64,000 nt of DNA, from the NCBI GenBank assembly GCA_012840465.1, contig DULJ01000061.1:30331-94330 (forward strand). The letters run 5' to 3'. Below, piece by piece: positions 6,056 to 62,469 of the stretch; position 1 is the first letter of the stretch; the number at the start of each line of letters is the position of its first letter. The translations under genes were made by a program, and so were the position numbers. Source of the stretch: Bacillales bacterium. GTDB lineage: Bacteria; Bacillota; Bacilli; Bacillales; Bacillaceae_J. Under the pieces are notes generated by a model. The model was not told the DNA's origin. It did no database searches and saw nothing but the letters and a program-made list of their open reading frames with translations.

Positions 6056-6200
6056 AAAAACTCCTTCTGCTCGTTGCAAAAGGAGTTTTTATACACACTT
6101 TTATCAACCAAAGCAGGGCTTTGTTGGTAGGAGCACCTTTCCCGGTAGGGGAGGTTGCTGTGAAGTCATTGAGCCAATTCTCTCGTTCACTCTTGATAAT
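6056..6200 (-). promoter_or_regulatory. SAM-I (S-box) riboswitch with terminator expression platform
   Basis: The minus strand reads AUUAUCAAGAG-UGAAC-GAGAGAAUUGGCUCAAUGA-CUUCAC-AGCAACC-UCCCcuacCGGGAAAGGUGCU..CAAAGCccuGCUUUG-GUUGAUAA. This fits the S-box core (UUAUCAAGAG, kink-turn GA..AUGA, GCAACC, GGUGC, P1 closing UUGAUAA). It is followed by AAAAACUCCUU-13 nt-AAGGAGUUUUU. Confidence 0.65.
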
Positions 6201-6239
6201 CACCTATTCAATTTTCCCGATAAGATTACTATGTTTTAA

Positions 6240-6268
6240 ATATTATCATTTCTTTTTCAATTTGTAAA
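6240..6268 (-). promoter_or_regulatory. Sigma-A-type promoter for the riboswitch-esterase transcript
   Basis: Minus strand TTTACA (6268..6263), 17-nt spacer, TAATAT (6245..6240). Confidence 0.4.
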
Positions 6269-6273
6269 TATCT

Positions 6274-6312
6274 AAAAATAAAAAGGGCACCTTATAATTT
6301 AAAGTGCCCTTT
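6274..6312 (-). terminator. Rho-independent terminator (minus strand)
   Basis: Minus strand AAAGGGCAC-loop-GTGCCCTTT followed by TTATTTTT. Confidence 0.75.
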
Positions 6313-6404
6313 CTCGCATTGAGGCGATTGACTGCATGCCACATTCATGCATTCCCTAAAAGGACGTGTCAATCGGCTTACACAATTCAGCTCATCGCAA
6401 AAAG
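6274..6404 (-). ncRNA. Candidate small RNA (stand-alone promoter-to-terminator unit, about 125 nt)
   Basis: A strong minus-strand promoter sits at 6406..6435 and an intrinsic terminator at 6274..6312. The interior has nested stems CGATTGAC/GTCAATCG and TGCATG/CATGCA. No RBS-preceded ORF is present. Confidence 0.35.
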
Positions 6405-6544: not shown

Positions 6545-7618
6545 ATGCTTGATCAAACCATCAAAGTTGATTTAAGCTCGACTAAAAAACCAAAACCAGA
6601 TGCTGATAAATTGCAATTTGGTAAATTATTTACGGATCATATGTTTATTATGAATTATAAAGAAGGAAAAGGCTGGCATGATCCTCGAATCGTACCCTAT
6701 CAGCCGCTTACATTGGAACCTTCATGCGTTGTTTTTCATTATGGACAAACGGTCTTTGAAGGAATGAAAGCTTATGTCACGAAAGACGGTGAGGTTCAAT
6801 TATTTAGACCAAATAAGAACTTCGAGAGATTAAACCGTTCAAATGACAGATTAGTAATACCGCGAATTGATGAGGAATTTGCTTTAGAGGCATTAAAGCA
6901 GCTAGTTTCAATTGATAAAGACTGGGTTCCAAATGCGGGAGGAACATCCCTATATATTCGTCCATTCATCATTGCAACACAACCTTATCTAGGCGTTGCA
7001 CCATCATCAGAGTATATGTTTATTATTATCATGTCACCAGTAGGTGCTTATTATAAAGAAGGCTTAAACCCTGTCAAAATCCAAGTAGAAGATGAGTATG
7101 TTCGAACAGTCAAAGGTGGTACAGGTGAAGCAAAAACAGGTGGAAATTATGCAGCAAGCTTAAAGGCTCAAGAAATTTCCGGTGAAAAAGGATATTCCCA
7201 GGTTTTATGGCTGGACGGAAAAGAACATAAATACGTTGAAGAAGTGGGCAGTATGAACATGTTCTTCAAAATTGATGGCAAAGTCATCACACCGGCGTTG
7301 AATGGAAGTATTCTCCCAGGTATTACAAGGGACTCCATTATTCAACTTTTAAAATACTGGAATGTACCGGTAGAAGAACGTCGGATTTCTATTGAAGAGA
7401 TTTATGAGGCAGCTGCACATGGAAAGCTAGAGGAAGCGTTCGGAACAGGAACAGCTGCTGTTATTTCACCTGTTGGAGAATTTTTGTGGAAAAATGAAAA
7501 AGTTATTCTTAACGATGGAAAAACAGGCGAAATTTCCAAAAAGCTATACGATACGTTAACAGGTATCCAATATGGAACAGAACCAGATCCATTCGGTTGG
7601 ACTGTAAAAGTGGAATAG
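6545..7618 (+). CDS. ilvE: Branched-chain amino acid aminotransferase (class IV PLP enzyme)
   Basis: BCAT-type sequence (FGKLFTDHMF, EGMKAY, GTGEAKTGGNY, GITRDS). AAGGAG at 6530..6535 supports a start at ATG 6545, or 6536. The upstream part of the track ORF (6347..) is non-coding. Confidence 0.9.
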   Translation: MLDQTIKVDLSSTKKPKPDADKLQFGKLFTDHMFIMNYKEGKGWHDPRIVPYQPLTLEPSCVVFHYGQTVFEGMKAYVTKDGEVQLFRPNKNFERLNRSNDRLVIPRIDEEFALEALKQLVSIDKDWVPNAGGTSLYIRPFIIATQPYLGVAPSSEYMFIIIMSPVGAYYKEGLNPVKIQVEDEYVRTVKGGTGEAKTGGNYAASLKAQEISGEKGYSQVLWLDGKEHKYVEEVGSMNMFFKIDGKVITPALNGSILPGITRDSIIQLLKYWNVPVEERRISIEEIYEAAAHGKLEEAFGTGTAAVISPVGEFLWKNEKVILNDGKTGEISKKLYDTLTGIQYGTEPDPFGWTVKVE

Positions 7619-7627
7619 TCATGAATT

Positions 7628-7657
7628 AAAAGGAGCTGACAGGCGTCAGCTCCTTTT
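7628..7657. terminator. Bidirectional rho-independent terminator
   Basis: AAAAGGAGCTGAC-aggc-GTCAGCTCCTTTT between convergent genes. Confidence 0.8.
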
Positions 7658-7695
7658 AAATGTTAAGAGTAAGAGTATATGGCGCTTACGCTTTT

Positions 7696-8064
7696 CTAAT
7701 ATCCAACCTCAACAGCAGCAATAACGATGTACATTTGATCGTTTTTGTCGCCTTTTTCCTCTAAAACAATCCCGCTTGTTGTAAGCATGCCACCATCAAC
7801 AACTTCAACTGTTACTTTTCCGAAAGGTAGAGCTGCTTTAACGGCTTCAATGTCAAGGTTTTCTTTGTCACAAGGAACAGCGAGTCTTACATTGACGCAC
7901 ATATTGTCCAAGCTATTATTCGGCAATACAGAACGAATGCCAGGCATTGAATTATAATGGATCGCATTTTTTACAGCACGTACTGCGGCACGGGTAATAT
8001 CTTGACCATGAACATCAATACCCATCCCTGTTTCAATAAACATCATTTTTTCCAAAACTATCAA
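7696..8064 (-). CDS. Lin0512-family conserved hypothetical protein
   Basis: MMFIETGMGIDVHGQDITRAAVRAVKNAI is characteristic of the small Lin0512_fam proteins as I recall them. The start is ambiguous (TTG 8064, TTG 8055 or ATG 8046). Confidence 0.65.
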   Translation of the reverse strand: MIVLEKMMFIETGMGIDVHGQDITRAAVRAVKNAIHYNSMPGIRSVLPNNSLDNMCVNVRLAVPCDKENLDIEAVKAALPFGKVTVEVVDGGMLTTSGIVLEEKGDKNDQMYIVIAAVEVGY

Positions 8065-8211
8065 TCCTTCCTAGTATTTATATATTTATTATAGCATTCA
8101 GACTTAAATGTGAACAAAAATAGTCAAATCTGGATATTCCATTGTGGTTTGTTTAAAATATTCATATAATAAATGATTAGAATTGCTAAGAACTAAGGGG
8201 AGATCACATTT

Positions 8212-8736
8212 ATGAAAAAAATCGTAGCAATTGTTATTGTATTATTCCTAGTTTTAGTAGGGTGGCTATACTATGTTAATTTAACGAATGTCGATGAATT
8301 TAGATTAACAAACTATACGATCATTCAAAAAGATAAGGTAAAAGTAAATGAACCAATGTATTTAAGCTATGATATGCAATACCATGGAAACGCAAAGCCG
8401 GTTATTAAAGAAATTCGGTTTATTAAAACAGATGGATCTTTTTTAACGGCTGATGATGAAGCACTTTCAGTAACTGCATTTGTTGATGAAAAAGGTTCAA
8501 CCCTAGCCAATACAAATGAGGCTATCACTGAAAAAGAGGCAAAAGAATTAAATTTACTAGAAAATTATATACCTGCCGAAAATTATCAAGTAAACCAAAC
8601 GGATCTAAATGTTGTTCTAAAAGTAACAATAAAAGATGAGAATTACAAAAATAATGTAACGGCAATCGAAATTGACTATGAATTGTTAAGATCTAAAGAA
8701 ACCAAACAGATTTTGTTTTCTGGCTTTGTTGAGTAA
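8212..8736 (+). CDS. Membrane-anchored hypothetical protein
   Basis: Good RBS (GGGGAG) and a single N-terminal TM. No recognisable domain. Confidence 0.5.
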   Translation: MKKIVAIVIVLFLVLVGWLYYVNLTNVDEFRLTNYTIIQKDKVKVNEPMYLSYDMQYHGNAKPVIKEIRFIKTDGSFLTADDEALSVTAFVDEKGSTLANTNEAITEKEAKELNLLENYIPAENYQVNQTDLNVVLKVTIKDENYKNNVTAIEIDYELLRSKETKQILFSGFVE

Positions 8737-8824
8737 TCATTTTTTTAGAAGTGGTCGTTTTTTCGGTCACTCTTTTTTCATAATTTTTAGAGGAATAATG
8801 TGGAATTAATAGCTATAATAAAAG

Positions 8825-9499
8825 TTGAAATTAAAAAAAAATTTAGAGAGGTATAAAATGGGCGAATTTTCATTATCGATTCTTATTGATGTAGTAGGCG
8901 AGTTATTTTCGGATGAAACATCTATTGCAGTCTCAAATGGAGACAAGTATATATATTATCGCCCAAGTAAACGGATCAATCTTAAGATAAAGCCTGGTGA
9001 TCCGGTTAAGGAAGGGACCATTACATATAAAGCGCTGCTGAATGGGCAAAAGGTCTCCGAGTTTATCAGCAGAGATGTATTTGGTGTGCCATACTACGGG
9101 ATGGCTGTTCCTTTTTCAATAGAGGGAAAACAAGGGTGTATAACGGCTATCTTCCCAACCTTATCTAGTGCCACATCTGTTGTCACTGTAAAGATTAATG
9201 AAGGGTGGATTCCGGTCCCTTTTGAAAAAGTAATCTACTTGGAAGCAAAAAATCGCAAAACATATGTAATCACAGAGGAATGCTCTGGAACGCATAAGGA
9301 TTCCCTAAATGAATTTGATTATTACTTGCCGAAGGAAACGTTCATCAGATGCCATCGTTCCTTCATAGTGAACGTAACCCAAATTAAAATGATTCATCCT
9401 GACACACATTCGACCTTTCTGTTAGAAATGAGGGACGGAACCGAAATTCCAGTCAGTCAATCCTATTCTAGTTATTTCAGGAAATTGCTGGGTGTTTAA
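8825..9499 (+). CDS. LytTR-family DNA-binding protein with a non-receiver N-terminal domain
   Basis: C-terminal LytTR signature (VIYLEAKNRKTYVIT ... FIRCHRSFIVN). The N-terminal 110 aa or so lack receiver Asp motifs. The likely start is ATG 8858 (MGEFSL). Confidence 0.75.
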   Translation: MKLKKNLERYKMGEFSLSILIDVVGELFSDETSIAVSNGDKYIYYRPSKRINLKIKPGDPVKEGTITYKALLNGQKVSEFISRDVFGVPYYGMAVPFSIEGKQGCITAIFPTLSSATSVVTVKINEGWIPVPFEKVIYLEAKNRKTYVITEECSGTHKDSLNEFDYYLPKETFIRCHRSFIVNVTQIKMIHPDTHSTFLLEMRDGTEIPVSQSYSSYFRKLLGV

Positions 9500-18107: not shown

Positions 18108-18431
18108 CTATTTTCGTTGTTCGATCTGCCACTTTGTGAATTCTAAAAACTCACGAAATTGTTCTTTACTTACTCCAGATTCTGCTGCTTCCTTTGCAAG
18201 TTTAATCCATTCCGGATCTAATGAATCTTCATCGACTTCAGCATTTAAAAGTGATTGAACACTAATATCCAAAACTGCTGCGATTTTTTCTAAAAAATGT
18301 ACAGAGGGATTTGATTGAATATCCCGCTCAATCGAACTTAAATAGGATTTTGCAATACCTGCCTTTGCAGCCAAATCTGATAGTGAGAGCCCCTTCTCTT
18401 TTCTAATTGTTTGGATACGTTTCCCTATCAT
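18108..18431 (-). CDS. sinR: SinR, master biofilm repressor (XRE HTH + Sin multimerisation domain)
   Basis: Colinear with my recollection of B. subtilis SinR (MIGxRI..RKEKG.SLS.LA.KAG.AKSYLSSIER..Q.NPS..FLEK..AVLD.SV..LL ... EW..L...A..SGVSK.QFREFL...KW). Confidence 0.85.
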   Translation of the reverse strand: MIGKRIQTIRKEKGLSLSDLAAKAGIAKSYLSSIERDIQSNPSVHFLEKIAAVLDISVQSLLNAEVDEDSLDPEWIKLAKEAAESGVSKEQFREFLEFTKWQIEQRK

Positions 18432-18509: not shown

Positions 18510-18665
18510 TTAATTCACGTTACTATTAGTTCTTAAAAATATCCTTATGTCCTCAACCGATAGTCCTAGTGATTTTGCATCTAAAAGCAATTGTAACCAC
18601 TCTAAATCTACTGTGGGTGGTTGAATATTTTGAGTCTGAGACGACTGTGCACTTTGAGTATCCAT
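18510..18665 (-). CDS. sinI: SinI-like SinR antagonist (51 aa, not in the ORF track)
   Basis: The minus-strand ORF encodes MDTQSAQSSQTQNIQPPTVDLEWLQLLLDAKSLGLSVEDIRIFLRTNSNVN. RBS GGGGGG lies 4 nt upstream. The Sin-domain helix-hairpin pattern LD.EW..L...AK..G.S.E.IR.FL is present, and the gene is directly upstream of sinR. Confidence 0.7.
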   Translation of the reverse strand: MDTQSAQSSQTQNIQPPTVDLEWLQLLLDAKSLGLSVEDIRIFLRTNSNVN

Positions 18666-19031
18666 ATTCCCCCCTGGTTTATTCCTTTTGGTAGCCCAGC
18701 TATCAAAGTATTACTTAGACCTGTGGCTTTGCGTCCCTGTTTCGCAAGCAGGTTTGCCTTTTTCAAAGTATGGATTTTGATTATTGAACAAATGTTTCTG
18801 TTTTGTTTACTTAATAAGAAAAAAATTTATTGGACGCATCCTCCTTGTTGTATAAATTTATTAGTGCTTTCGTTTTAGTGAATTAGGGAATTTGTAATAG
18901 TTCATCTAATTTTACTATAGGTTTTCCGATTTATTGCCACTTTTTCAGGGTGAAATATCGACAAAATAAAACGTGCTAAGCCACATTTTTCTAATTCTTA
19001 TAAAGATATGATATCATTTTAAATAATACGT

Positions 19032-19553
19032 ATGAAGGAAAGGATGTATAACTTGTCTATTGAAAATGTAAAAGCTCATTTTAAAAAGTGGAATCGTGAA
19101 AAGGACGTTATGGAATTTGATACTTCCAGTGCAACGGTTGAGAAAGCCGCTGAAACAATTGGGGTTATTCCAGCACGAATTGCAAAAACTTTATCATTCA
19201 GGGGAGAGGATGATAAAGCGATATTAATTGTTGCTGCTGGCGATGCCAAAATCGACAACAAGAAATTCCGCCAGACATTTGGTTTCAAAGCTCGAATGCT
19301 TACACCAGATGAAGTTCTTGAACAAACAGGACATGCCATCGGTGGGGTGTGCCCGTTTGGATTAGCCAATAATTTGGATGTCTATCTCGACGTCTCCATG
19401 AAACGCTTCGAGACCGTTTTCCCAGCATGCGGAAGCGCGAACTCCGCAATTAAGTTAACGATTGAGGAATTAGTTCAGTATGCCTATGCCAAAAAGTGGG
19501 TTGATGTTTGCAAAGACTGGGAAAAAGATGGATTGGAAGAAGCAGCAGTGTAA
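19032..19553 (+). CDS. YbaK/EbsC-family aminoacyl-tRNA deacylase
   Basis: YbaK-type motifs (KTLSFRGE, GHAIGGVCPFG, ACGS). Confidence 0.8.
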   Translation: MKERMYNLSIENVKAHFKKWNREKDVMEFDTSSATVEKAAETIGVIPARIAKTLSFRGEDDKAILIVAAGDAKIDNKKFRQTFGFKARMLTPDEVLEQTGHAIGGVCPFGLANNLDVYLDVSMKRFETVFPACGSANSAIKLTIEELVQYAYAKKWVDVCKDWEKDGLEEAAV

Positions 19554-19588
19554 TGTTGCTGGGAAAAAGGCAGAGGAGGAGAGGACCA

Positions 19589-19864
19589 ATGTTTTCAATA
19601 ACCGATGTGGCCAAAACAGAATTACACGGAAGATTAAATGTATCAGAAACAAAAAAGTTCATACGCCTGCAACTCCGGTTCAGTTGTTTGGTAAAGCTGA
19701 AATTAACATTGGAAGATTCCATTCAGCCAAATGACGAAGAAATTACCATCGATGGACTGGATTTTATCATTGATAAAACACAACTCCATTACTTTAGCAA
19801 TAACCAAATTAATTATGTGCCGGATCAAACTGGATTTATGGAATTTGTTGCGGAAGCGGTTTAA
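19589..19864 (+). CDS. HesB/YadR/YfhF-family (IscA-like, Cys-less) small protein
   Basis: Start ATG 19589 behind GAGGAGGAG. The 91-aa product has an IscA-like fold pattern (ITDVAKTEL...IRL..., IDGLDFIID). Confidence 0.6.
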   Translation: MFSITDVAKTELHGRLNVSETKKFIRLQLRFSCLVKLKLTLEDSIQPNDEEITIDGLDFIIDKTQLHYFSNNQINYVPDQTGFMEFVAEAV

Positions 19865-19869
19865 TCAAT

Positions 19870-19918
19870 AGTGCCCCATAGGAAGTCATTTAAACGACTC
19901 CCTATAGGGCACTTTTTA
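19870..19918 (+). terminator. Rho-independent terminator
   Basis: AGTGCCCCATAGG-loop-CCCTATAGGGCACT followed by TTTTT. Confidence 0.8.
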
Positions 19919-20045
19919 CTTCTTCTTAAAGGCCGCCTAGTGAAAGTTCGTAGAAAATCTGTGCCGATTAATAAGAGAATAAATTCAATTTGTTCTTAAA
20001 AGAAAACATAATTATTAACTATTTATATAAAATAGTAAAACACGG

Positions 20046-20074
20046 TTGTAATAGTAGGTGATTCTATATATAAT
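20046..20074 (+). promoter_or_regulatory. Sigma-A promoter of the sortase-adhesin operon
   Basis: TTGTAA, 17-nt spacer, TATAAT. Same architecture as the lasso-cluster promoter at 25106. Confidence 0.55.
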
Positions 20075-20090
20075 GTTCTTTATAGGGAAC
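20075..20090. promoter_or_regulatory. SinR-type operator (inverted GTTCTYT heptads)
   Basis: GTTCTTTATAGGGAAC abuts the -10 element. Confidence 0.55.
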
Positions 20091-20145
20091 AACTGTCGAC
20101 AGTTTAGACTTACATAAAGCACACATTATATAAAAAAAGACACTT

Positions 20146-20161
20146 GTTCTTTAAAAAGAAT
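20146..20161. promoter_or_regulatory. SinR-type operator, second site
   Basis: GTTCTTTAAAAAGAAT in the leader. Confidence 0.45.
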
Positions 20162-20283
20162 AAGATATGAGTGCGAACCTATTCCTGCGGTGGTATGGAA
20201 GGTAAGCAAATCAGAAGGAATTAGAAGTTTGATCTTTTATCGTTTTTAAAAAAATCTAATTGAAAGGAGTTTCGGAATTTAAA

Positions 20284-20940
20284 GTGAAGATTTTGTTTTC
20301 AGCTTTATATTTATTTTTGAAAAACATGGGTTCTAGAAAAATAGCGACAATCTGTATTCTAAATGGCCTCATATTAATCTTATACCCTAGTGTAGAGGAC
20401 CGTGTATTTCAAAAAAAACAAGCTGAAGTATTGAAACAATGGGAAGACGATAAACAGATTACAAATCAGATTGACAATTTATCGACAACTGCTCAACCTA
20501 CCTCAAGTACTAAAAAAGAAATACCTGTCATGATTGATGGACACGAGGTGGTCGGTGTTATTTCTATCGATAACATTGATTTACAGTCACCAATCATTAA
20601 TGGTTCAGAAGAGCAATCGTTAAAGGTAGGAATTGGGGTGGTGGAACCTGACCGAAGTCCTGGAAACGTAAATAATTATGTTTTAGCCGGCCACAACAGT
20701 GCAACGTATGGAAAACATTTTAACCGTCTCAATGAGTTAGAAGTAAATGATCGAATCATCATTAAAACTATAAATAGTGACTACATCTATAAGGTTACTT
20801 CTATTTTTGTAGTGGATCAAGATAACCTTAGTGTTTTAGAGAATAGTAATTTAGCAGAGATAACGCTTATTACGTGCGAATATGATCGAAGGAAAAAACC
20901 GATATATCGACTGATTGTAAAAGGAACATTAGTAACATAA
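20284..20940 (+). CDS. Sortase (dedicated to the adjacent LPXTG protein)
   Basis: N-terminal TM, VLAGHN catalytic His region, ITLITCE catalytic Cys, C-terminal Arg (YRLIV). The start is uncertain (GTG 20284, TTG 20260 or ATG 20326). Confidence 0.85.
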   Translation: MKILFSALYLFLKNMGSRKIATICILNGLILILYPSVEDRVFQKKQAEVLKQWEDDKQITNQIDNLSTTAQPTSSTKKEIPVMIDGHEVVGVISIDNIDLQSPIINGSEEQSLKVGIGVVEPDRSPGNVNNYVLAGHNSATYGKHFNRLNELEVNDRIIIKTINSDYIYKVTSIFVVDQDNLSVLENSNLAEITLITCEYDRRKKPIYRLIVKGTLVT

Positions 20941-20958
20941 AAAAAGAGGTGAGAATAA

Positions 20959-23900
20959 ATGAATAAGCGAAATAACCCTATTCTGATTTGGATATTGATT
21001 CTTATGCTTATAACTCAAACTTTCGCACCGATAAGTATCGTATCCGCAACGGAATCAATAGGGGGTGAGGATAGTAGTATAATTGAATCAATATCGAATT
21101 CAACTGAAAATGATGTGGAAAATAGCGATACAAGCGCAAGTGAGAATGAGAATGAGAGTAGTGATAATATCTTAACTGAAAATGGGAAGAATGGGGATAG
21201 CTCTATTACTGTTGATCATGAAAATAGTGAGGAGGGTGACCGACAAGCTAGCGAGAGCGATGAAAATAGTAAGGAAAGCGACCAACCAGTTAACGAAAAC
21301 AATAAAATTAATGAAAAGGAGGATATTTATGTAGAGGCGGATATGCCACAAAAAGAGGAGAAAATACCACCTCTTGAACAACCTCCGGGACTCACGCCAT
21401 TTTTTCAATTAAATGGCGCTCCGCAGGTCATCCCTGAAAACTTGATTACACATGTTGTAATGAAGGATGGTGAAAATGGGAATCCGATCGAAGACATTCG
21501 ACCAGAACAAGGATCTAGGGTTTGGATTGAATATACATGGGCAGTTCAAGCAGGACATGAATATGGCGCAGGCTCTGTATTTACATTTAATCTCCCAGAT
21601 AAATTTAAAACTGGAATCCCGTTGTACGGAAAATTAACCGGTGAAGTTAATGCTGTGTATTTTGTTTCACCGGAAGGTCAAGTAACTTTCACGTTTAATG
21701 AAGAAATTGACGATAGCACAACTGGAAACTTTTTTGTTTGGAGAGAGCTTGATGAGAGCAAGTTTTCAGGGGGATTAAAGCAAGAGATTTTATTTCAGCA
21801 TGGAGAGTCAATCACTGTTCATTTTTTACCCAAAAAAGGCACGAATGAAATGTCTAAATCCGGTACAGCAGATAGAAACATGAATCCAAGTAAGATTGAC
21901 TGGGTTGTAGATTTTAACAAACATGAAAAAGAGATTCATAATGCTATCTTTCAAGATACTCTCCCGGACGGTTTAGAGATTGATTTGAATTCGATTGAAG
22001 TATATGAGTTAGAGGTGCAATTGGATGGAACTGTCATACAAGGTGCTCCATATGGAAGTTTAATACGAAGTCTACGTGATAACGGTGGTGGATTTAAGCT
22101 TACCTTTATTGATAGTCCAATTAATAAGGCTTATCGCGTGAAGTATACAACTAACGTAAAGCCGATACTCGAAGCTCCTTATTTGGCTACTTTCAAAAAT
22201 AACGCATTTGTTTCAGGAAACGAAAATCCAAATTTAATGGCCGATGCTTATACAGTAAAAGTCGAATTTATCAAGCCTTTGGGTAAATCGGCAAACCATT
22301 ATGATACCACCACACAAACAATTACCTGGGCGATTCAATACAACTACAATGAACAAGTGATTGAACAAAGTAATGCGTGGGTTGTGGATACATTTGATAC
22401 GACTCCTCAAAAGCTAGTGGATAACTCATTTGAAGTATATGAAATGAAAATTGGTAATGATGGAAAAGCAACGAGAAAAACCGGAAAAAAACTAAGTAAA
22501 GGTACTGATTATGATGTTGTTGGAGAAAGCAGTGGATTTAAATTATATTTTAAAAATCAAATTAGCTCGGCTTACGAAATTTTCTACAAAACAACAGCCA
22601 TCGATCGGGTCTATGATGATGTAGACATTGTAAATATAGTAAAGATGCATGAGGGCACAGAAGTAACAGTAACAAGAAAGATTGGTCAAGTGATTTTTTC
22701 AAAAAGCTTTGTTGGAATTGATTACAATAAAGATACTATTACATGGAAAATTAGTGTAAATGGTGACAAAAAAACGATGAAAAGTGTCATCATTACAGAT
22801 TGCTATAAAAATGAAGGCTTAATCTTACAACCTGATAGTATAACAATTCCAGGCTTAACGAAGGGCACGGATTATACTGTAGTTGCAAAGCCCACATATG
22901 ACGAAGGATTTATTATTACGTTCCAAAACGATATAACAACTAATCACGATATAACGTACGAAACGACATATAATCCTACTCAATATACTCCTACAGCTAT
23001 AAAAACTATATCATATAAAAATACAGCAACAATAGAATGGAAGGAGGGAGATACTTCTCAGATTCCAATTACTAAAACTGCAACTGCAAATTTGAATAAT
23101 GACACGAAACGAAATGGAGTGAAAACCGCAAGCTACAATGTCCAAACAAAGGAAATAACTTGGACCGTTGATGTGAATTATAATCGCCACGTAATCAAGA
23201 ATGCAGTTGTTAAAGATATTTATACGGGAGACCAAACATTCCTGCTTGAATCGTTGACTGTTAATAAATTAACGATTGAAGCTAATGGTACTAAAACGGT
23301 TGATGCTCCACATATCGTCAATGACGGCGATCTCACTCCTGTCGAAGTAGAGGGCAAAGTCCAAGGCTTTACATTAAAGCTTGGTGATATTAATTCTGCT
23401 TATCGAATTACGTATAAAACGAGCCTTGATAAACATCCTGTAGCTAAACAATATTCAAATAAAGCCCTATTGTACGCTGCAAGTGATCCCGATAATTTAT
23501 TGTTTAATGAATCTGCTACTGTCGAACCAATATATGGTGGGGAATATATAAACAAGTCAGGTAGTCAAGGTAATGGTGCAGAGGCAGAATTCGCCTATTG
23601 GACTGTTAATATTAATCGCAGTCAATCCAGTATAGATGGTGCTAAGGTAACTGATATATTGTCATCGAATCAAATATTAGATAAGGACTCTGTTACATTG
23701 TATACAACAACTGTGGCAGCTGACGGTAAGATAACGAAAGCAGCTCCTGCGGTTGAATCACTATACACGGTGATGGTTAACGGTAACGAATTGACAGTAA
23801 TTTTTAACGAGGCTATTGATAGACCTTATATTTTAGAATATAAGTCGTTTATCAATGCTGGAGATAAAGAGGAAATCAGCAACCATGTTACACTTACAGG

Positions 23901-24939
23901 CCAATCCACCGGAATAGTTAACGAAAAAGATGAGATTCGGGTTCCCGTATACTTTGCAGGGGCAGGAGGAAGTGCTTCTCAAAATAAAGGAAGCATTAAA
24001 ATTATCAAAGTTGATGCCAATACGAAGGCTCCTTTAGCAGGTGCTGTTTTTGAACTTTACGACAAAACAGGGAATACACTTCTGGAATCAATTACGACAG
24101 ACGTAAAGGGGGAGGCGGTATTTAAAGGGTATAGATACGGAGCTTATCAGCTGAAGGAAAAGGTTGCACCAAATGGCTACGCCATCACTGCTGAGTATAA
24201 GGATGGTAAAGAAATTAAGCTTAATAAAGAGGTCATTGAAATTACAGTTGAGAATAAAGAACTTAAGCAGGGCTTTACATTAACAAAGATTGATAAAGAG
24301 GAGCCAACGAAAACATTAGCAGGTGCAACCTTTAAGCTACAGAAAAAAGTGGAGGGTGGAACCTACGAAGATATAGAGGAGCTAACAACGAATGCAGCTG
24401 GAATCATTGCAAAAGGTGAAGTAACACCGGGTGCTTATCAATTAATTGAAACAATAGCTCCAAAAGGCTATAAACTAGATCCAACACCAATACCATTTAC
24501 TATTGTGTCTAATCAGATAAAGATTATTGTATTAGAAAGTAAAAATGAAAAATTAACAATGACAAACGATAAAAAGCGTTCAGGCGGAAGTTCATCATCT
24601 GATTCACCAGGGGATAAAAATCCAAAACCAAAAGAAGATCCAAAAAATAATGAGGAAGAGACACCCGATGAACCTGGGAAAGAAATAGTAGACCCCGACC
24701 AAGATCATACTAATACTAATCATCTAGACGGTCAACCAGTGGATCCAATCAATCAAAAAGAAAGTCCAAAAATACTTGATCCAATTAACAATAATCCTAG
24801 TACAAACGAACAACCTACTAAACGTATCCTACCCCAAACTGGGGAATATTCATCAAAACTACCTTGGATTGGTTTGGTACTTTGTTTAATTGGGATCGCA
24901 CTTTGGATTAGACGAAGCAGATGGTTCACCAAAGAATAG
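20959..24939 (+). CDS. LPXTG-anchored collagen-adhesin-like surface protein (acidic N-terminus, repeated Cna-A-like modules, two CnaB/SpaA-fold domains)
   Basis: Signal peptide. The module marker TW.(I/V)..NYN recurs (TWAIQYNYNEQ, TWKISVNGDKK, TWTVDVNYNRH, YWTVNINRSQ). CnaB-like segments GSIKIIKVDANTKAPLAGAVFEL and GFTLTKIDKEEPTKTLAGATFKL. Pro/Asp/Asn-rich stalk, then LPQTGE + TM + RRSRW. Confidence 0.85.
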   Translation: MNKRNNPILIWILILMLITQTFAPISIVSATESIGGEDSSIIESISNSTENDVENSDTSASENENESSDNILTENGKNGDSSITVDHENSEEGDRQASESDENSKESDQPVNENNKINEKEDIYVEADMPQKEEKIPPLEQPPGLTPFFQLNGAPQVIPENLITHVVMKDGENGNPIEDIRPEQGSRVWIEYTWAVQAGHEYGAGSVFTFNLPDKFKTGIPLYGKLTGEVNAVYFVSPEGQVTFTFNEEIDDSTTGNFFVWRELDESKFSGGLKQEILFQHGESITVHFLPKKGTNEMSKSGTADRNMNPSKIDWVVDFNKHEKEIHNAIFQDTLPDGLEIDLNSIEVYELEVQLDGTVIQGAPYGSLIRSLRDNGGGFKLTFIDSPINKAYRVKYTTNVKPILEAPYLATFKNNAFVSGNENPNLMADAYTVKVEFIKPLGKSANHYDTTTQTITWAIQYNYNEQVIEQSNAWVVDTFDTTPQKLVDNSFEVYEMKIGNDGKATRKTGKKLSKGTDYDVVGESSGFKLYFKNQISSAYEIFYKTTAIDRVYDDVDIVNIVKMHEGTEVTVTRKIGQVIFSKSFVGIDYNKDTITWKISVNGDKKTMKSVIITDCYKNEGLILQPDSITIPGLTKGTDYTVVAKPTYDEGFIITFQNDITTNHDITYETTYNPTQYTPTAIKTISYKNTATIEWKEGDTSQIPITKTATANLNNDTKRNGVKTASYNVQTKEITWTVDVNYNRHVIKNAVVKDIYTGDQTFLLESLTVNKLTIEANGTKTVDAPHIVNDGDLTPVEVEGKVQGFTLKLGDINSAYRITYKTSLDKHPVAKQYSNKALLYAASDPDNLLFNESATVEPIYGGEYINKSGSQGNGAEAEFAYWTVNINRSQSSIDGAKVTDILSSNQILDKDSVTLYTTTVAADGKITKAAPAVESLYTVMVNGNELTVIFNEAIDRPYILEYKSFINAGDKEEISNHVTLTGQSTGIVNEKDEIRVPVYFAGAGGSASQNKGSIKIIKVDANTKAPLAGAVFELYDKTGNTLLESITTDVKGEAVFKGYRYGAYQLKEKVAPNGYAITAEYKDGKEIKLNKEVIEITVENKELKQGFTLTKIDKEEPTKTLAGATFKLQKKVEGGTYEDIEELTTNAAGIIAKGEVTPGAYQLIETIAPKGYKLDPTPIPFTIVSNQIKIIVLESKNEKLTMTNDKKRSGGSSSSDSPGDKNPKPKEDPKNNEEETPDEPGKEIVDPDQDHTNTNHLDGQPVDPINQKESPKILDPINNNPSTNEQPTKRILPQTGEYSSKLPWIGLVLCLIGIALWIRRSRWFTKE

Positions 24940-24955
24940 CTGTATCATAAATAAT

Positions 24956-25009
24956 CCTCCTTATACGTGTCTGTTTCAAACGCTGACACCCTGTAAGGAG
25001 GCTGTTTTT
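24956..25009 (+). terminator. Rho-independent terminator
   Basis: CCTCCTTATACGTGTC ... GACACCCTGTAAGGAGG followed by CTGTTTTT. Confidence 0.7.
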
Positions 25010-25105
25010 ATATCTATCCATTGTAATAGTATCATTGATAAATTGCGGCCGGAACAAGATTATAAAAAGTCAAAAATTTAATTAACAAAATACTAAAAAT
25101 AGTAG

Positions 25106-25134
25106 TTGAAATGTTAGGGAACTTCACGTAATAT
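25106..25134 (+). promoter_or_regulatory. Sigma-A promoter of the lasso peptide operon
   Basis: TTGAAA, 17-nt spacer, TAATAT. Confidence 0.55.
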
Positions 25135-25150
25135 ATTCTTTATAAAGAAC
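25135..25150. promoter_or_regulatory. SinR-type operator
   Basis: ATTCTTTATAAAGAAC directly after the -10 element. Confidence 0.55.
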
Positions 25151-25287
25151 AAAATTAGTTAATATTGACTATATAGAGTACGAAGGTGTTTTAAATATAG
25201 AATAATTTGCCACTCTATAGGACGAAAAAACGAGATTAGGAACATGCTGCTACGGCGGTATGAAAGGGAAACAAAGCAGGAGGAATT

Positions 25288-27219
25288 ATGAGTGCAATAG
25301 TTGGGATCTATCAAATGAATAATGAACCGGTATCGTCTGAACACGGAACTCAAATGATGAAAGCTCTAGAAAAATTTCCAGCGGATGATATTCAAGTATG
25401 GAAAAAAGAGAATATCTTTCTAGGATGCCATGCCCAATGGATTACTCCAGAGTCGATTGGAGAGCAATTGCCGTATTATGATGATCAGAGACAATTAGCG
25501 ATAACAGCTGATGCCATCATTGATAATCGTGATGAATTGTTTTCCATGCTTCAAGTCGATTATGAAGATCGAAAAACGATGCCTGATAGCCAATTAATTC
25601 TGCTTGCCTATTCCAAATGGGGTGAAGAGACACCGAAGTATTTGGTTGGGGATTTTGCATTTATGATTTGGGATGAACGGGAGCAAAAGCTGTTTGGTGC
25701 TCGGGATTTTTCAGGAGCAAGGACGCTTTACTTTTTCAAAAATGAACAAAGATTTTCGTTTTCTACGACAATTAAATCATTACTTACATTGCCTTATATT
25801 GAAAAAAAATTAAATGAACAGTGGATTGCAGAGTTTTTGGCAAATCCGGGGATGTTTGAGTCTCTTGATACATCGTCAACAGTGTATAACAGTATTCAAC
25901 AATTGTCTCCATCCCATTCTTTAACGATTGTGAATGGGAACATGTCATTAAAAAGATATTGCCATTTATATGAAGGAAAAAAACTAAAATTAAAATCAAA
26001 TGATGAATATGTAGAGGCATTTCGTGAAGTGTTTCAAAATACTGTTCGATCAAAGATGCGTACCCGTATGAAAGTAGGAGGCCATTTAAGTGGGGGGCTT
26101 GATTCTGGGTCAGTTGCTGCTTTTGCAGCTAAAGAGTTAAGAAAGAAAGGTCAACAGCTTCATACCTTTAGCTATGTACCCGTTGCTGATTTTGTTGATT
26201 GGACACATAAAAGCAGGATTGCGAATGAAAAACCATTAATTGAATCCACAGTAAATTATGTTGGGAATATCTCGCCAAACTATTTGAGCTTGCCGGAAAG
26301 AAACCCTTATTCGGAAATTGATGAATGGGTAGAAACAATGGAGACGCCTTATAAATTCTTCGAAAATACATTTTGGCTAAGGGGAATTTATGAAGAGGCT
26401 AGCCAACAGGGGGTTGGAGTCTTATTAAACGGGCAAAGAGGGAATTGGACAATATCATGGGGTCCAGTTTTTGACTATTATGCTCTTTTAATCAAAAAAA
26501 TGAAGTGGATCAGCCTTAACCAACAAATGAAAGAATATATGCATAAGGCTGGTACGGGAAGAAGGCGTATTTTATCTACAGTAAATAGAAAACTAATGCC
26601 TTTTATTTATGAAAGGACGATTGACAAAAACTCAGACTTTCCTATGTTTTTTAATCGGAACTTGGCGCTAAGAACAAATGTATTGGAAAAACTGAACGAG
26701 CATGGCATTGATCCTAGAGGTAGAATAGGGCCAAATTCATATAAAATAAGAAATGATCAGTTTCAACACTTATACTATTGGCTTAATACTGGTACATATG
26801 GGTCTAAGCTGTCATTGCGCTATGGAATAGTAGACCGCGATCCAACCAATGATTTACGTGTCATTCGTTTTTGTTTATCCGTTCCAGATGAGCAATTTGT
26901 TTTGAATGGATTTGATCGGGCTTTAATTAGAAGAGCGACAGAAGGATATTTACCTGATGATATACGCTTGAATATGCTTAGGAGAGGTGTCCAAGGTGCT
27001 GATGGTGTTCATCGAATGAAACTAGTTTGGGGAAAATTTCTGGATGAATGTAACGAGTTAAAAGGCGAACCCCTAATAAAGGAATTTTTGGACATCAATG
27101 TAATAGAAAAATGCATCAATCTTATGAAGAATGATCCAAAGCCTGAATTTGCATTTGCATTTGAATTTAAAGTTCTAATGAGAAGTTTGATCTTCTATCG
27201 ATTTTTAAAAAGTTTTTAA
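25288..27219 (+). CDS. Lasso peptide cyclase (asparagine synthetase B homolog, C protein)
   Basis: AsnB-like protein with N-terminus MSAIVG (no catalytic Cys2, as I recall is typical of lasso cyclases). PP-loop HLSGGLDSGS. Lies directly upstream of a lasso-type precursor. Confidence 0.85.
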   Translation: MSAIVGIYQMNNEPVSSEHGTQMMKALEKFPADDIQVWKKENIFLGCHAQWITPESIGEQLPYYDDQRQLAITADAIIDNRDELFSMLQVDYEDRKTMPDSQLILLAYSKWGEETPKYLVGDFAFMIWDEREQKLFGARDFSGARTLYFFKNEQRFSFSTTIKSLLTLPYIEKKLNEQWIAEFLANPGMFESLDTSSTVYNSIQQLSPSHSLTIVNGNMSLKRYCHLYEGKKLKLKSNDEYVEAFREVFQNTVRSKMRTRMKVGGHLSGGLDSGSVAAFAAKELRKKGQQLHTFSYVPVADFVDWTHKSRIANEKPLIESTVNYVGNISPNYLSLPERNPYSEIDEWVETMETPYKFFENTFWLRGIYEEASQQGVGVLLNGQRGNWTISWGPVFDYYALLIKKMKWISLNQQMKEYMHKAGTGRRRILSTVNRKLMPFIYERTIDKNSDFPMFFNRNLALRTNVLEKLNEHGIDPRGRIGPNSYKIRNDQFQHLYYWLNTGTYGSKLSLRYGIVDRDPTNDLRVIRFCLSVPDEQFVLNGFDRALIRRATEGYLPDDIRLNMLRRGVQGADGVHRMKLVWGKFLDECNELKGEPLIKEFLDINVIEKCINLMKNDPKPEFAFAFEFKVLMRSLIFYRFLKSF

Positions 27220-27238
27220 CTGAAGGGAGGTGACAAAA

Positions 27239-27364
27239 ATGAAAAAGAATTGGCAGAAACCAGAATTAGAAGTGCTGGATGTTAATATGACAATGGCTGG
27301 GCCAGGGCATAGAATTCCTGATGCCATACAGCCTGATCCAGATGATCCTGTTAAATATAGTTAA
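27239..27364 (+). CDS. Lasso peptide precursor, paeninodin-type (41 aa, not in the ORF track)
   Basis: GGGAGG lies 7 nt upstream. Product: MKKNWQKPELEVLDVNMTM-AGPGHRIPDAIQPDPDDPVKYS. Thr is at -2. In the core, A1 and D9 can form a 9-residue macrolactam. C-terminal Ser. Confidence 0.8.
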   Translation: MKKNWQKPELEVLDVNMTMAGPGHRIPDAIQPDPDDPVKYS

Positions 27365-34404: not shown

Positions 34405-34520
34405 TTTGGTGATGTCTCCTAGCCGTTATCAATGGAGGCACTCGGTCACGCTGTGGGTTTAAATGAACCTTAGACGCCAGTCGTCGAAAGTGTAACGTGA
34501 GGGAGGGTTGGATGCCCTAT
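34405..34520 (+). ncRNA. Structured RNA candidate in the position of EAR (eps-associated RNA antitermination element)
   Basis: A 305-nt gap lies between the epsB-like and epsC-like genes. It holds a locally GC-rich segment with nested helices TCACG(34446)/CGTGA(34496), GGGTT(34455)/AACCT(34466), GACG(34473)/CGTC(34482) and CTCC/GGAG (34417/34434). Confidence 0.45.
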
Positions 34521-60220: not shown

Positions 60221-60236
60221 GTTCTCTATTAAGAAT
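60221..60236. promoter_or_regulatory. SinR-type operator
   Basis: GTTCTCTATTAAGAAT. A further half site, ATTCTTTAT, lies at 60250. Confidence 0.5.
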
Positions 60237-60325
60237 AATGCAATTCTAGATTCTTTATTAATCAAGGGGAACCCAAGATAATTTACTAGAAATATAGTGA
60301 ATTATGGAGAAAAACACACTATGGT

Positions 60326-60341
60326 GTTCTTTATTAAGAAT
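60326..60341. promoter_or_regulatory. SinR-type operator next to the precursor RBS
   Basis: GTTCTTTATTAAGAAT, 10 nt upstream of GGAGG. Confidence 0.5.
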
Positions 60342-60362
60342 ACATTAAAGGGAGGTGTTAAT

Positions 60363-60536
60363 TTGAAAAAACAATGGAGAAAACCCAACCTAGAGGCTTT
60401 GGAAGTAAAAATGACAATGAAAGGATGGAAACCTTTTTGTCCCCCTGGTAAAGGTGGAGGGACCCCCGGTGGTGGCAATGGGAATGAAAACCACGATGAC
60501 AATAATGACATCCCTGATTTAGGCCTTGATAGCTAA
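60363..60536 (+). CDS. Orphan lasso-type precursor-like peptide (57 aa) with atypical Gly-rich core
   Basis: TTG start 7 nt after GGAGG. Product: (M)KKQWRKPNLEALEVKMTM-KGWKPFCPPGKGGGTPGGGNGNENHDDNNDIPDLGLDS. The leader is colinear with the 27239 precursor leader, and the C-terminal residue is Ser. Confidence 0.7.
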   Translation: MKKQWRKPNLEALEVKMTMKGWKPFCPPGKGGGTPGGGNGNENHDDNNDIPDLGLDS

Positions 60537-60551
60537 GACTTAAGTGATTCG

Positions 60552-60590
60552 AAAGCCTCTTATACAATTAATAGAAGTATAGGGGGCTTT
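60552..60590 (+). promoter_or_regulatory. Stem-loop after the precursor gene (analogous to 27393)
   Basis: AAAGCCTCTTATAC-11 nt-GTATAGGGGGCTTT (14 bp including G-U pairs) with no T-tract. Confidence 0.5.
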
Positions 60591-60666
60591 GGATTTGAAC
60601 TAGTATCGGTTATTTTAACAACGATTAATATGTAGTGTCTTTAATGGAAAATAGGAGAGATGATTT

Positions 60667-62469
60667 TTGAAATACCTCATGTACTATTTCAAACAATTGC
60701 ATACATATGCGGGGAAGATTCTGTATATCAATCTCCTAGGGATGATGGCCATTAGTGTTTTTGAGGGTCTCGCGATTCTATTAATTATCCCCATGATCAA
60801 TGTTAGTGGTGTAATTGATATGAATACCCAAACGATTCCTTTTTTGCATCACTTGGATTTCATGAAAGACAATCCGATGGAGCTTGTACTCCCTATTTTA
60901 CTCGGAGGCTACGTCTTAATCATTCTTGTTCAGCAAATATTGCAAAATAAGCTTACCATACAGATGACCCGTATTAAAGTCGGATTTATCAATTCCTTAC
61001 GATTGAAAATCTATCATTCCGTTCTACAGGTAAAATGGGAGTTCTTTATCAAAAGGAGAAAATCCGATTTAATAAGTGCATTAACAAATGCCCTTGGACG
61101 GGTAAATAGCGGAATTAGCCAGCTGTTAAACTTAATCTCTGCAATCATACATACTATCATTCAGATTGGGATCGCATTTGTATTATCGCCGCAAATAACA
61201 GTATTTGTGTTGACCTGTGGATTCATTATCAGTATTTTTACTAGAAGATACATAACCAAATCCCAAATAATTGGAATTAACACGTCGGAGATTGGCAAAA
61301 GTTATTATGCTGGACTCACAGATCATTTTAATGGGATGAAGGAAATTAAGAGCAATAGGTTAGAAAAAACAATGCATAATTGGCTTGATTCCTTAAATAA
61401 TAGAATTGTTCATGAAAAAATAGAAAATGTTAAATTGCGCAATGAGTCACAGTTGTTCTACAAAGCCGCTTCATCCATTCTCATTGCATTCTTTATTTTT
61501 TTATCACTGAAATTGTTTCATTCAAAGCCTGAGCAATTATTAATTATCGTTTTAATATTTTCCAATCTATGGCCAAAGTTTGCAGGAATACAGCAAAATA
61601 TCGAGATTATAGCATCAGCGATTCCAGCATGTGAGTCATTATTCAACTTGCAAGGAGAATGCGGAATGGAGAGAGAAAGCAATGGCTTCAATCGAAATTC
61701 CAAAAGCGGCCATCACTTGCAAATAGAAAATGGGATTGAGTGTAAGGATGTATATTTCCGATATAATAAAAACGAATCGAATCTTAACTTGCAAAATATC
61801 AGCTTGAATATTCCAGCTAACTGTACAACTGCGATTGTAGGCCGTTCAGGTGCAGGAAAGAGCACACTGATTGATATTTTAATGGGATTACTAAAGCCAG
61901 ATCATGGTCAAGTTGTGATCGATGGGACCCCGATCACTGGTGAAAATGTTTATCAGTTAAGAAAATTAATCAGTTATGTTCCCCAGGATCCATTTCTTTT
62001 TAATGGAAGTATTAGGGATAATCTAATACTGGTTCGTCCCAATGCAAATGAAGAGGAAATGTGGGAAGCCCTAACTTTTGCAGCTGCAGATGAATTTGTG
62101 AAAAGGCTCCCGCAAGGGTTAGATACGATGATCGGTGATAGGGGGATTAGACTTTCAGGTGGAGAACGCCAGCGTCTTGTATTAGCTAGAGCGATATTAA
62201 GAAAACCTTCGATTCTCATTTTAGATGAAGCAACGAGTGCGTTGGATACTGAAAATGAGGCAAAAGTTCAAGAAGCACTTGACCGGTTAAAAGGAACGAT
62301 GACCATCATTGTGATTGCTCATCGCTTTTCGACCATACGCAACGTTGATCAGGTCATCGTTCTTGACAAAGGAGAGCTGATTCAACAAGGAGATTTCGAT
62401 GATTTGGCGCAAGAGAAAAGAGGAGTGTTTAGCCACTTATTAGGGAAACAATTAGAAGTGAGCCGTTAG
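60667..62469 (+). CDS. ABC exporter, fused TMD-NBD, paralog of the lasso D protein at 30385
   Basis: Same length (600 aa) and colinear with 30385..32187 throughout (for example FIKRRKSDL, IIQIGIAF, GRSGAGKSTLID, LSGGERQR, KRGVFSHLL). TTG start behind GGAGAG. Confidence 0.9.
   Translation: MKYLMYYFKQLHTYAGKILYINLLGMMAISVFEGLAILLIIPMINVSGVIDMNTQTIPFLHHLDFMKDNPMELVLPILLGGYVLIILVQQILQNKLTIQMTRIKVGFINSLRLKIYHSVLQVKWEFFIKRRKSDLISALTNALGRVNSGISQLLNLISAIIHTIIQIGIAFVLSPQITVFVLTCGFIISIFTRRYITKSQIIGINTSEIGKSYYAGLTDHFNGMKEIKSNRLEKTMHNWLDSLNNRIVHEKIENVKLRNESQLFYKAASSILIAFFIFLSLKLFHSKPEQLLIIVLIFSNLWPKFAGIQQNIEIIASAIPACESLFNLQGECGMERESNGFNRNSKSGHHLQIENGIECKDVYFRYNKNESNLNLQNISLNIPANCTTAIVGRSGAGKSTLIDILMGLLKPDHGQVVIDGTPITGENVYQLRKLISYVPQDPFLFNGSIRDNLILVRPNANEEEMWEALTFAAADEFVKRLPQGLDTMIGDRGIRLSGGERQRLVLARAILRKPSILILDEATSALDTENEAKVQEALDRLKGTMTIIVIAHRFSTIRNVDQVIVLDKGELIQQGDFDDLAQEKRGVFSHLLGKQLEVSR

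Follow-up and report, generated by a model that had tools for sequence, protein, structure and literature searches.

A sortase-adhesin operon behind a probable resident lasso-peptide promoter with SinR-type operators in a Bacillales genome

Organization of the sortase-adhesin and lasso-peptide genes

The window analysed here is a stretch of 64,000 nt from a Bacillales bacterium (GenBank assembly GCA_012840465.1, contig DULJ01000061.1, positions 30,331 to 94,330 of the forward strand), and the element in question is the promoter and leader region at about 20 kb that precedes an operon for a sortase and a surface adhesin and resembles parts of the lasso-peptide locus further downstream. The region is bounded on its left by an iron-sulfur (Fe-S) biogenesis gene (19553-19864) with its intrinsic terminator (19870-19913, plus strand), a hairpin of -24.5 kcal/mol (z = -7.1) followed by a U run. 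On the same strand follow a sigma-A-type promoter, here called promoter S, the sortase gene (20326-20940), the adhesin gene (20959-24939), the intrinsic terminator of the sortase-adhesin unit (24956-25001; -21.3 kcal/mol, z = -4.9, then a U run), a second lasso-type promoter and leader, called Lw (25060-25287), and the lasso cyclase gene (25288-27219). Promoter S reads TTGTAA-17-TATAAT (20046-20074), agrees with the consensus at 10 of 12 positions and is the sole plus-strand promoter-like site in 19800-20400, while Lw carries TTGAAA-17-TAATAT at 25106-25134.

The sortase, of 204 residues when counted from the ATG at 20326, is recognized by the Pfam Sortase model (4.6e-29). Its nearest homolog among 5.8 billion proteins, with the window's own contig excluded, is 47% identical, and its closest relative, from Brevibacillus, is also paired with a giant downstream protein, in an unrelated context. 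The scores fall below all NCBIfam class cut-offs (93.7 bits with the SrtD model, cut-off 140; 81 bits with the class D model, cut-off 165), and because only the general sortase family model is passed, no sortase class is assigned. The adhesin comprises 1,326 residues, with a signal peptide, five collagen-binding domains, two SpaA domains and a C-terminus made up of an LPQTG motif (residue 1291), a transmembrane segment and a basic tail. Together, a sortase and a neighbouring LPXTG-type protein form the combination expected of a sortase and its sorted substrate. For comparison, one genome per species was scanned with the cyclase protein, which gave 80 lasso loci; in none of them does the region within 10 kb of the cyclase contain a sortase or this adhesin, and the pair looks foreign.

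In the lasso cluster the cyclase gene is followed by a precursor gene of the paeninodin family (27239-27364, plus strand; MKKNWQKPELEVLDVNMTMAGPGHRIPDAIQPDPDDPVKYS; NCBIfam NF033524, 71.1 bits against a cut-off of 27) and by genes for an HPr-kinase-like protein, a PqqD-type B1 protein, a transglutaminase-type B2 protein, a nucleotidyltransferase, an ATP-binding cassette (ABC) exporter and a DUF218 protein. The Pfam domains of the Asn-synthetase-like cyclase, of the split B1/B2 pair and of the exporter all score over their cut-offs. The NCBIfam cyclase model gives 403 bits, under its strict cut-off of 525, and the HPr-kinase-like protein, whose position fits the cluster, reaches 29.2 bits with Hpr_kinase_C, under the cut-off of 33.3. 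Downstream lies an eps-type operon (Wzz/tyrosine-kinase/EpsC) with an EAR/epsC RNA inside it (34407-34518, plus strand, 112.7 bits).

A first-pass annotation of the window had described three blocks upstream of the sortase gene that match the lasso locus in the same order, and a direct check of the sequence finds all three at the positions and in the order reported. Block 1 (20069-20092 against 25129-25152) is identical at 19 of 24 positions. The lasso copy of block 2 (20185-20223 against 25247-25288) ends, as had been noted, at the A of the cyclase ATG, the open reading frame (ORF) running from 25288. In block 3 (20224-20269 against 27182-27229) 29 of the first 31 columns are identical, exactly as counted by hand before. 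With blastn, blocks 1 and 2 merge into a single alignment (19993-20228 against 25060-25293; 62% over 243 nt, E = 3e-14 for a search within the window, as for the next value) and block 3 is recovered as 20219-20269 against 27177-27229 (83% over 53 nt, E = 2e-7); nowhere else in the 64 kb is there a match comparable to either. Smith-Waterman scores were in addition set against 500 dinucleotide-preserving shuffles, a control of the kind that the first-pass annotation had named as a possible refutation. The leader scores 43 (shuffles: mean 23.1, standard deviation 2.9, maximum 34; z = 6.9) and block 3 scores 57 (mean 19.9, standard deviation 2.9, maximum 34; z = 12.9), so that both lie far above the controls, and the best scores of any other 311-nt stretch of the window are 34 and 36, respectively. 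The two leaders are thus homologous, as claimed, and the homology of the blocks as a whole is real to near certainty. The cyclase ORF separates blocks 2 and 3 by 1,894 nt in the lasso locus, whereas at 20.2 kb they abut, in keeping with the cyclase-sized gap of about 1.9 kb reported earlier.

The probable resident leader and cyclase relic

Homologs of the Fe-S protein assign the source organism to the Schinkia (Bacillus) azotoformans group, and the window forms part of a Logan assembly of run DRR066655. Two loci in particular, L059 (a metagenome-assembled genome whose record is labelled Alkalihalobacillus macyae) and L089 (from Logan, found via the Fe-S protein), share the flanking genes crp, DUF1806, pigL, sinR, sinI and the Fe-S gene with the window at 76-95% amino acid identity, and L059 also shares ybaK. 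In both, the Fe-S terminator hairpin precedes a leader homologous to those of the window, and an intact cyclase follows directly, without sortase or adhesin. A relative with an intact cyclase behind the same leader at this site, as the first-pass annotation had proposed to look for, is thus available in two forms. The whole intergenic region of L059 aligns to window positions 19870-20228 (66% over 378 nt, E = 4e-33). On its left, the ancestral lasso promoter region is delimited by the Fe-S gene terminator. The hexamers of promoter S align with the -35 and -10 hexamers of the leaders of L059, L089 and a third relative, L092, as well as with those at 25106-25134. The weight of promoter S rests on this conservation in four other leaders, since shuffled sequences yield 2.6 chance matches per region.

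When identities are computed from the -35 hexamer to the end of the leader, the S leader is 76% identical to that of L089, 76% to that of L059 and 71% to that of L092. The Lw leader is 61.6% identical to S, 65.2% to L089, 61.2% to L059 and 61.4% to L092. In a bootstrap of 2,000 replicates S lay nearer to the L059 and L089 leaders than to Lw in all of them, and a four-point grouping of S with Lw was found in 6%. Identities and bootstrap together therefore point to S as the resident lasso promoter, still where it first stood, and to Lw as the outlier. This reverses the polarity of the first-pass annotation, in which the sortase leader was a copy of the present lasso promoter and leader, but its term "promoter capture" remains an apt description of the outcome. 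The original promoter and leader stretch (19,993-20,223) contains the sigma-A-type promoter, three SinR-type operators, which are described below, and a leader of about 140 nt. Block 2 (20185-20223, plus strand) is the conserved 3′ end of the lasso leader, in which the ribosome-binding site (RBS) of the cyclase has decayed to GAAGG; the other four leaders read GGAGG. A sequence resembling a cyclase start, ATGAGTGC at 20168, was taken as a chance occurrence, because the aligned relatives read CACGTGTG and CACATGTG.

The cyclase that now follows Lw (25288-27219, plus strand), whose 3′ end together with the following RBS (27182-27229) forms the counterpart of block 3, is 86% identical to the L089 cyclase in amino acids and 84.6% in nucleotides, the flanking core genes being 83-91% identical in nucleotides. 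No mosaic pattern relative to L089 is found in it, and its first 420 nt are 83-97% identical to the L059 cyclase in 60-nt bins. As judged from these values the present cyclase is resident, and Lw presumably now drives the lasso operon. The L059 cyclase (6945-8891) is itself chimeric. After the first ~420 nt the listed bins fall to 50-77% identity with the window, and the other L059 lasso genes are 54-61% identical to those of the window in amino acids, the flanking genes being 76-94% identical. The L059 lasso cluster has thus been exchanged through recombination that broke within the cyclase gene, from which it follows that the leader and the cyclase 5′ end are the vertically inherited anchor of the site, and that recombination within lasso loci occurs in this group.

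Block 3 corresponds, as the first-pass annotation had it, to the final codons of a lasso cyclase followed by the RBS of the precursor gene, AAAGGAG (20224-20269, plus strand). Translated in the cyclase frame it reads RSLIFYRF-stop, the early stop being made by a 1-nt deletion, and it matches the cyclase 3′ end and precursor RBS in more than 20 loci of different genera at 75-79% over about 52 nt. The best matches are of the Schinkia type, namely L092 (43 of 48), L089 (29 of 31) and the window's own cyclase (41 of 49). Homology to a coding region, a retained order of the flanks and a recognizable frame are the marks of a gene relic or pseudogene, and block 3 shows all three. Weak similarity past block 3 may reach about 20288, some 15 nt further, with the precursor ATG reading ATT (20277-20279). 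Between the relic RBS and the sortase start no significant similarity to a precursor gene extends beyond these ~15 nt, and the remaining 40 nt are unlike a precursor. The identification of the sortase leader with the resident lasso promoter, and of block 3 with a cyclase relic, is very probable.

The relic also has consequences for the reading of the sortase start. The ATG at 20326 is most likely the start codon, as it fits the gene call, the N-termini of homologs and their lengths of 201-212 residues. It lies 57 nt past the relic RBS and itself lacks a Shine-Dalgarno (SD) sequence, so that the first-pass description of the start as poorly placed relative to the RBS holds for this codon; it does not hold for the alternative in-frame GTG at 20284, which is 14 nt past the RBS. 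At the left junction, the short sequence ATGAG is present at both corresponding points of the lasso locus (GGAATT-ATGAG-TGC and CTA-ATGAG-AAG). A clean deletion between these repeats would give GGAATTATGAGAAG, and the actual junction, GGAATTAGAAG, equals that product minus 3 nt (e.g. ATG). Of the deletion between direct repeats that had been suggested, the repeats themselves are therefore found, but the junction requires an additional loss of 3 nt. When metagenome contigs were scanned for the same scar with the exact degenerate junction pattern, only two unrelated chance hits were obtained.

The site itself varies among relatives. In L083-L088 (Schinkia azotoformans and relatives, 79-90% identical in nucleotides in core genes) no lasso cluster is present at the same site, downstream of the Fe-S gene; instead there are a minus-strand sortase that is 28-31% identical to that of the window, an operon with a TasA/camelysin-like protein (Peptidase_M73), and an extra SinR-like helix-turn-helix gene beside sinR. 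The site is a variable biofilm-gene island. The contigs of L089, L090 and L091 end 92 nt past the cyclase stop, and these last 92 nt are unrelated to the expected precursor RBS and gene; they look like a repeat or insertion sequence between cyclase and precursor, near the point where foreign DNA starts in the window. The record of L003 (JAGGRA010000044.1) is titled Pseudomonas sp. ISL-84, yet its lasso-eps locus is of Bacillus type and the cyclase shares 71% identity with that of the window; its label or assembly is probably wrong.

SinR-type operators and their predicted regulators

SinR recognizes a 7-bp consensus, GTTCTYT, and binds with highest affinity when two such sites are arranged as an inverted repeat (PMC3163267). 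A search for GTTCTYT-N2-ARAGAAC with at most two mismatches finds three boxes at the sortase leader. Box 0 (GTTCTTAAAAGAAAAC, 19992-20007, two mismatches) lies upstream of the -35 hexamer, and the same sequence is conserved in L089. Box 1 (GTTCTTTATAGGGAAC, 20075-20090, one mismatch) adjoins the -10 hexamer and spans the predicted start of transcription. Box 2 (GTTCTTTAAAAAGAAT, 20146-20161, one mismatch) is located inside the leader, and its distance from the leader end is close to that of the second box in L059 (-78) and in many further lasso loci. Lw has a single box with one mismatch (25135-25150), and the equivalent of box 2 has degenerated in its leader. S has thus kept the two-box layout, and Lw only the box at the -10 hexamer.

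Such boxes are strongly enriched, both in the window and at lasso loci in general. The window contains 13 of them against 1.2 expected, and 20 sites resembling TTCTTTATAAAGAACAA against 1.3 expected. They cluster at the sortase leader (three), at Lw (one), before the eps-type operon (two, 32811 and 32921) and at 60221 and 60326 (two). Among the 80 lasso loci (L002-L081), which represent many genera, there are 63 in which the 400 nt preceding the cyclase hold one box or more, where shuffled sequences give 0.7 loci; of AT-rich control windows, 6.5% contain a box. Lasso loci typically have two boxes, at about -150 to -240 and -60 to -90, and many adjoin downstream eps genes (Wzz/tyrosine-kinase/EpsC) or have a sinR or sinI homolog within 10 kb. 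The boxes at 60221 and 60326 directly precede a second paeninodin-family precursor gene (60363-60536, TTG start, 57 aa; NF033524, 34 bits against the cut-off of 27), which is followed by an ABC exporter gene (60667-62469); no cyclase is adjacent to it in 60221-62469.

The genes for the regulator pair are close by. On the minus strand, sinR (18108-18431; Pfam HTH_3 and SinI domains) and sinI (18510-18665; Pfam SinI domain) lie 1.6 kb upstream of the sortase leader. A ybaK-like gene is located upstream as well. A riboswitch aptamer of the cyclic di-GMP (c-di-GMP)-I type (18686-18767, minus strand; Rfam RF03167, GGC variant, 64.8 bits) ends 21 nt before the sinI start codon, and a riboswitch of the same clan occupies the matching place on the sinI strand in all five related loci scanned (L059, L089, L085, L087 and L088). 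In the literature no paper was found that links lasso peptides to SinR, or a c-di-GMP riboswitch to sinI. Elsewhere in the window, an S-adenosylmethionine (SAM) riboswitch and a match to the BsrF small RNA were noted at 6098-6398 (minus strand).

The operators at promoter S make SinR control of the sortase-adhesin operon quite probable. Transcription would start at promoter S, cross a leader of about 245 nt, continue over the sortase and adhesin genes and stop at 25001. Since the pair would be transcribed from the old lasso promoter, it is predicted to share its control with the lasso and eps operons, SinR repressing all of them and SinI lifting the repression, and in this way the adhesin operon is predicted to have joined the SinI/SinR biofilm regulon. 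The inserted terminator is predicted to insulate the lasso operon, which would remain expressed from Lw as its new promoter, with one operator only.

Origin of the arrangement and comparison with known systems

The best reading of the window's map is a resident leader, an intervening block of 5,064 bp (20,224-25,287) and a resident cyclase. The block contains, in this order, 46-65 nt of cyclase relic and precursor RBS, the sortase gene, the gene for the LPQTG adhesin, the terminator and Lw. The whole block could have arrived in a single recombination event; its donor would be a diverged lasso locus with the sortase-adhesin pair placed downstream of a cyclase gene and ahead of the following lasso promoter. 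Two-cyclase clusters with an internal promoter of this sort are common in the family, a second promoter with a SinR-type box being present between the first precursor and the second cyclase in 9 of the 12 such clusters among the 80 loci. The right junction would then have formed by homology in the conserved leader end or the cyclase 5′ end, and the left junction illegitimately at the ATGAG microhomology, with 3 nt (e.g. ATG) lost then or later. The relic may accordingly be the left end of the imported block, rather than the leftover of a cyclase deleted in this genome. A single import is the favoured route because one step then accounts for S and the cyclase being resident and for Lw being divergent, yet as a choice over duplication in place it is held only tentatively. 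As a whole, the explanation in which the original lasso promoter was captured, with an intervening block, SinR control and a single import, is the best of those considered, and is adopted with moderate confidence.

Several observations weigh against this explanation. The junction is 3 nt short of an exact ATGAG-mediated join. Block 3 is nearest to Schinkia-type cyclase ends (84-94%), whereas Lw is an outlier, which fits a single import less neatly than a relic of the resident gene, and 49 nt cannot decide the matter. The extra divergence of Lw (~35% against 24% differences, standard error ~4%) could reflect faster drift and not foreign origin. A compositional anomaly of the block was looked for and not found, and no donor of the sortase-adhesin pair or of the junction was found in the 80 loci, the protein collection or the metagenome junction scan. 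The adhesin terminator, when considered as the terminator of the first-module precursor of a two-module donor, has no significant similarity to any locus. The ATG at 20326 has no SD sequence, so that efficient translation of the sortase from the captured leader is not assured. Finally, the transcription start, SinR binding and expression are all predicted, the functional claims being drawn from the sequence.

The same map can also be obtained in place. A tandem duplication of terminator, promoter, leader, cyclase and RBS, or a pair of ancestral modules (the "former additional lasso module" of the first-pass annotation), could have been followed by the landing of the sortase-adhesin pair at the position of the first precursor, loss of the first cyclase between its start codon and a point 37 nt short of the stop, and fast divergence of Lw. 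The affinity of block 3 to Schinkia-type cyclase ends, with two synonymous states in common with L089, speaks for such a history, as do the ATGAG repeats flanking the putative deletion, the loss of operator 2 from Lw, which makes relaxed constraint plausible, and a weak likeness of the adhesin terminator region to the Fe-S stop-plus-terminator region (5 of 1,000 shuffles reach the score). Clusters with two tandem cyclases and a precursor after the first are moreover common, being found in 12 of the 80 loci (L002, L004, L005, L040, L042, L043, L052, L063, L064, L070, L073 and L076) and in L093. Yet in these relatives the second cyclase is only 51-55% identical, whereas the present cyclase of the window is as near to the L089 cyclase, which stands behind an S-type leader, as are the core genes, so that it does not look like an old second-module paralog. 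Nor is Lw any nearer to S than to the leaders of other genomes, the two being grouped in few bootstrap replicates, and additive distances place the S/Lw split at or before the split of L059 and L089, which would demand an independent loss of the second copy in each relative. A history in place is for these reasons considered less likely, though it is the main rival of the import.

Much less probable are two further accounts. In the first-pass annotation taken literally, the sortase leader would be a recent copy of the present lasso promoter, leader, cyclase and precursor RBS that was moved or duplicated to a place upstream of the sortase gene and from which the interior was later deleted. The homology of the two regions and the shared sequence of blocks within them agree with this, but a recent copy should be the closest relative of its source, and the pair within this genome, at ~62%, is among the most distant; the sortase leader is instead 76% identical to leaders of two genomes at the same chromosomal position, where it is contiguous with the same terminator. 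A copy of this kind is therefore very improbable. Blocks 2 and 3 might alternatively owe their likeness not to common descent but to independently maintained signals (operator, leader motif, RBS) or to a conserved regulatory RNA. In favour of this, the operator part of block 1 recurs at unrelated promoters, both of the eps-type operon (32811, 32921) and at 60221 and 60326, and the last ~45 nt of the leader are conserved among five leaders. Blocks 2 and 3, on the other hand, occur nowhere else in the window and in other genomes only before or at the end of lasso cyclase genes, and block 3 retains the cyclase frame. No Rfam family is found in the sortase leader (19900-20400) at E values up to 5, a scan of the window at the gathering thresholds likewise finding none there, and the lasso leader (25000-25350) gives only two matches at chance level (E = 3.5, to models of a nematode small nucleolar RNA and a fly long non-coding RNA). 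Single-sequence folds of the leaders are mutually inconsistent, and a consensus fold of four leaders by RNAalifold reaches -3.7 kcal/mol with 0 compensatory pairs, in a test that has low power with four sequences. Taken together, these results leave an origin without common descent extremely improbable.

With the captured resident promoter as the preferred explanation, the locus represents a clean, datable case in which a horizontally acquired adhesin operon was wired into an existing regulon, with a readable seam and with the displaced operon rescued by a second promoter. As an instance of promoter capture it is useful as an example but unsurprising in principle, and its by-products may matter more. 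It can be proposed, though only tentatively, that lasso operons of the paeninodin family are regular members of the SinI/SinR regulon in Bacillaceae and Paenibacillaceae, that their promoter-leader is a portable SinR-responsive cassette which was here re-used for an adhesin, and that the Schinkia circuit is fed by the c-di-GMP-type riboswitch on sinI. To our knowledge no natural function has been established for the paeninodin-family lasso peptides. If the proposal is true, membership in the SinI/SinR regulon would point to a biofilm-related role of the family and offer a testable handle on the purpose of the peptide, and adhesin, lasso peptide and exopolysaccharide would be predicted to be made together.

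Homology-facilitated illegitimate recombination and promoter capture by insertion are general mechanisms. As in these, one junction of the present block would lie in a region of homology (the leader end or the cyclase 5′ end) and the other at a 5-nt ATGAG, with a foreign operon placed behind a resident promoter; unlike a clean case, the donor is lacking, the junction is 3 nt short, and duplication in place plus deletion gives the same map. The operators resemble those of SinR at the eps, tapA (yqxM) and aprE genes of Bacillus subtilis, with the same 7-bp half-site, the inverted repeat and the 2-bp spacer (PMC3163267). Further similarities to B. subtilis are that a promoter carries several boxes, which overlap the -10 hexamer or lie past it, that boxes occur at an eps-type operon and that a sinI-sinR pair is nearby. 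Unlike the SinR targets of B. subtilis, the predicted boxes here front a lasso-peptide and a sortase-adhesin operon, in a Schinkia species, and in the literature searched neither type of operon is described as a SinR target. The gene content of the lasso cluster matches that of the paeninodin-type clusters of Bacillales (padeC-A-K-B1-B2-D; PMC5067487), the kinase being a candidate, but here the promoter has been split from the cluster by a foreign operon, and the finding concerns the promoter, the leader and the relic and not the chemistry. In Bacillus thuringiensis the collagen adhesins Cap and CbpA are controlled by a c-di-GMP riboswitch in the adhesin's own 5′ untranslated region (UTR) (PMC4933901, PMC7423583). 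The present adhesin is likewise a large LPXTG-type collagen-binding protein, with a predicted tie to the switch between biofilm and motile states, but its 5′ UTR would be a captured lasso leader with SinR-type boxes; with the c-di-GMP-type riboswitch located upstream of sinI, any input of c-di-GMP to the adhesin would be indirect, via sinI. The elements of the locus are thus all of known kinds, i.e., SinR-type operators, a paeninodin-type cluster, a sortase-substrate pair and promoter capture, and the locus is a well-preserved instance rather than a new mechanism.

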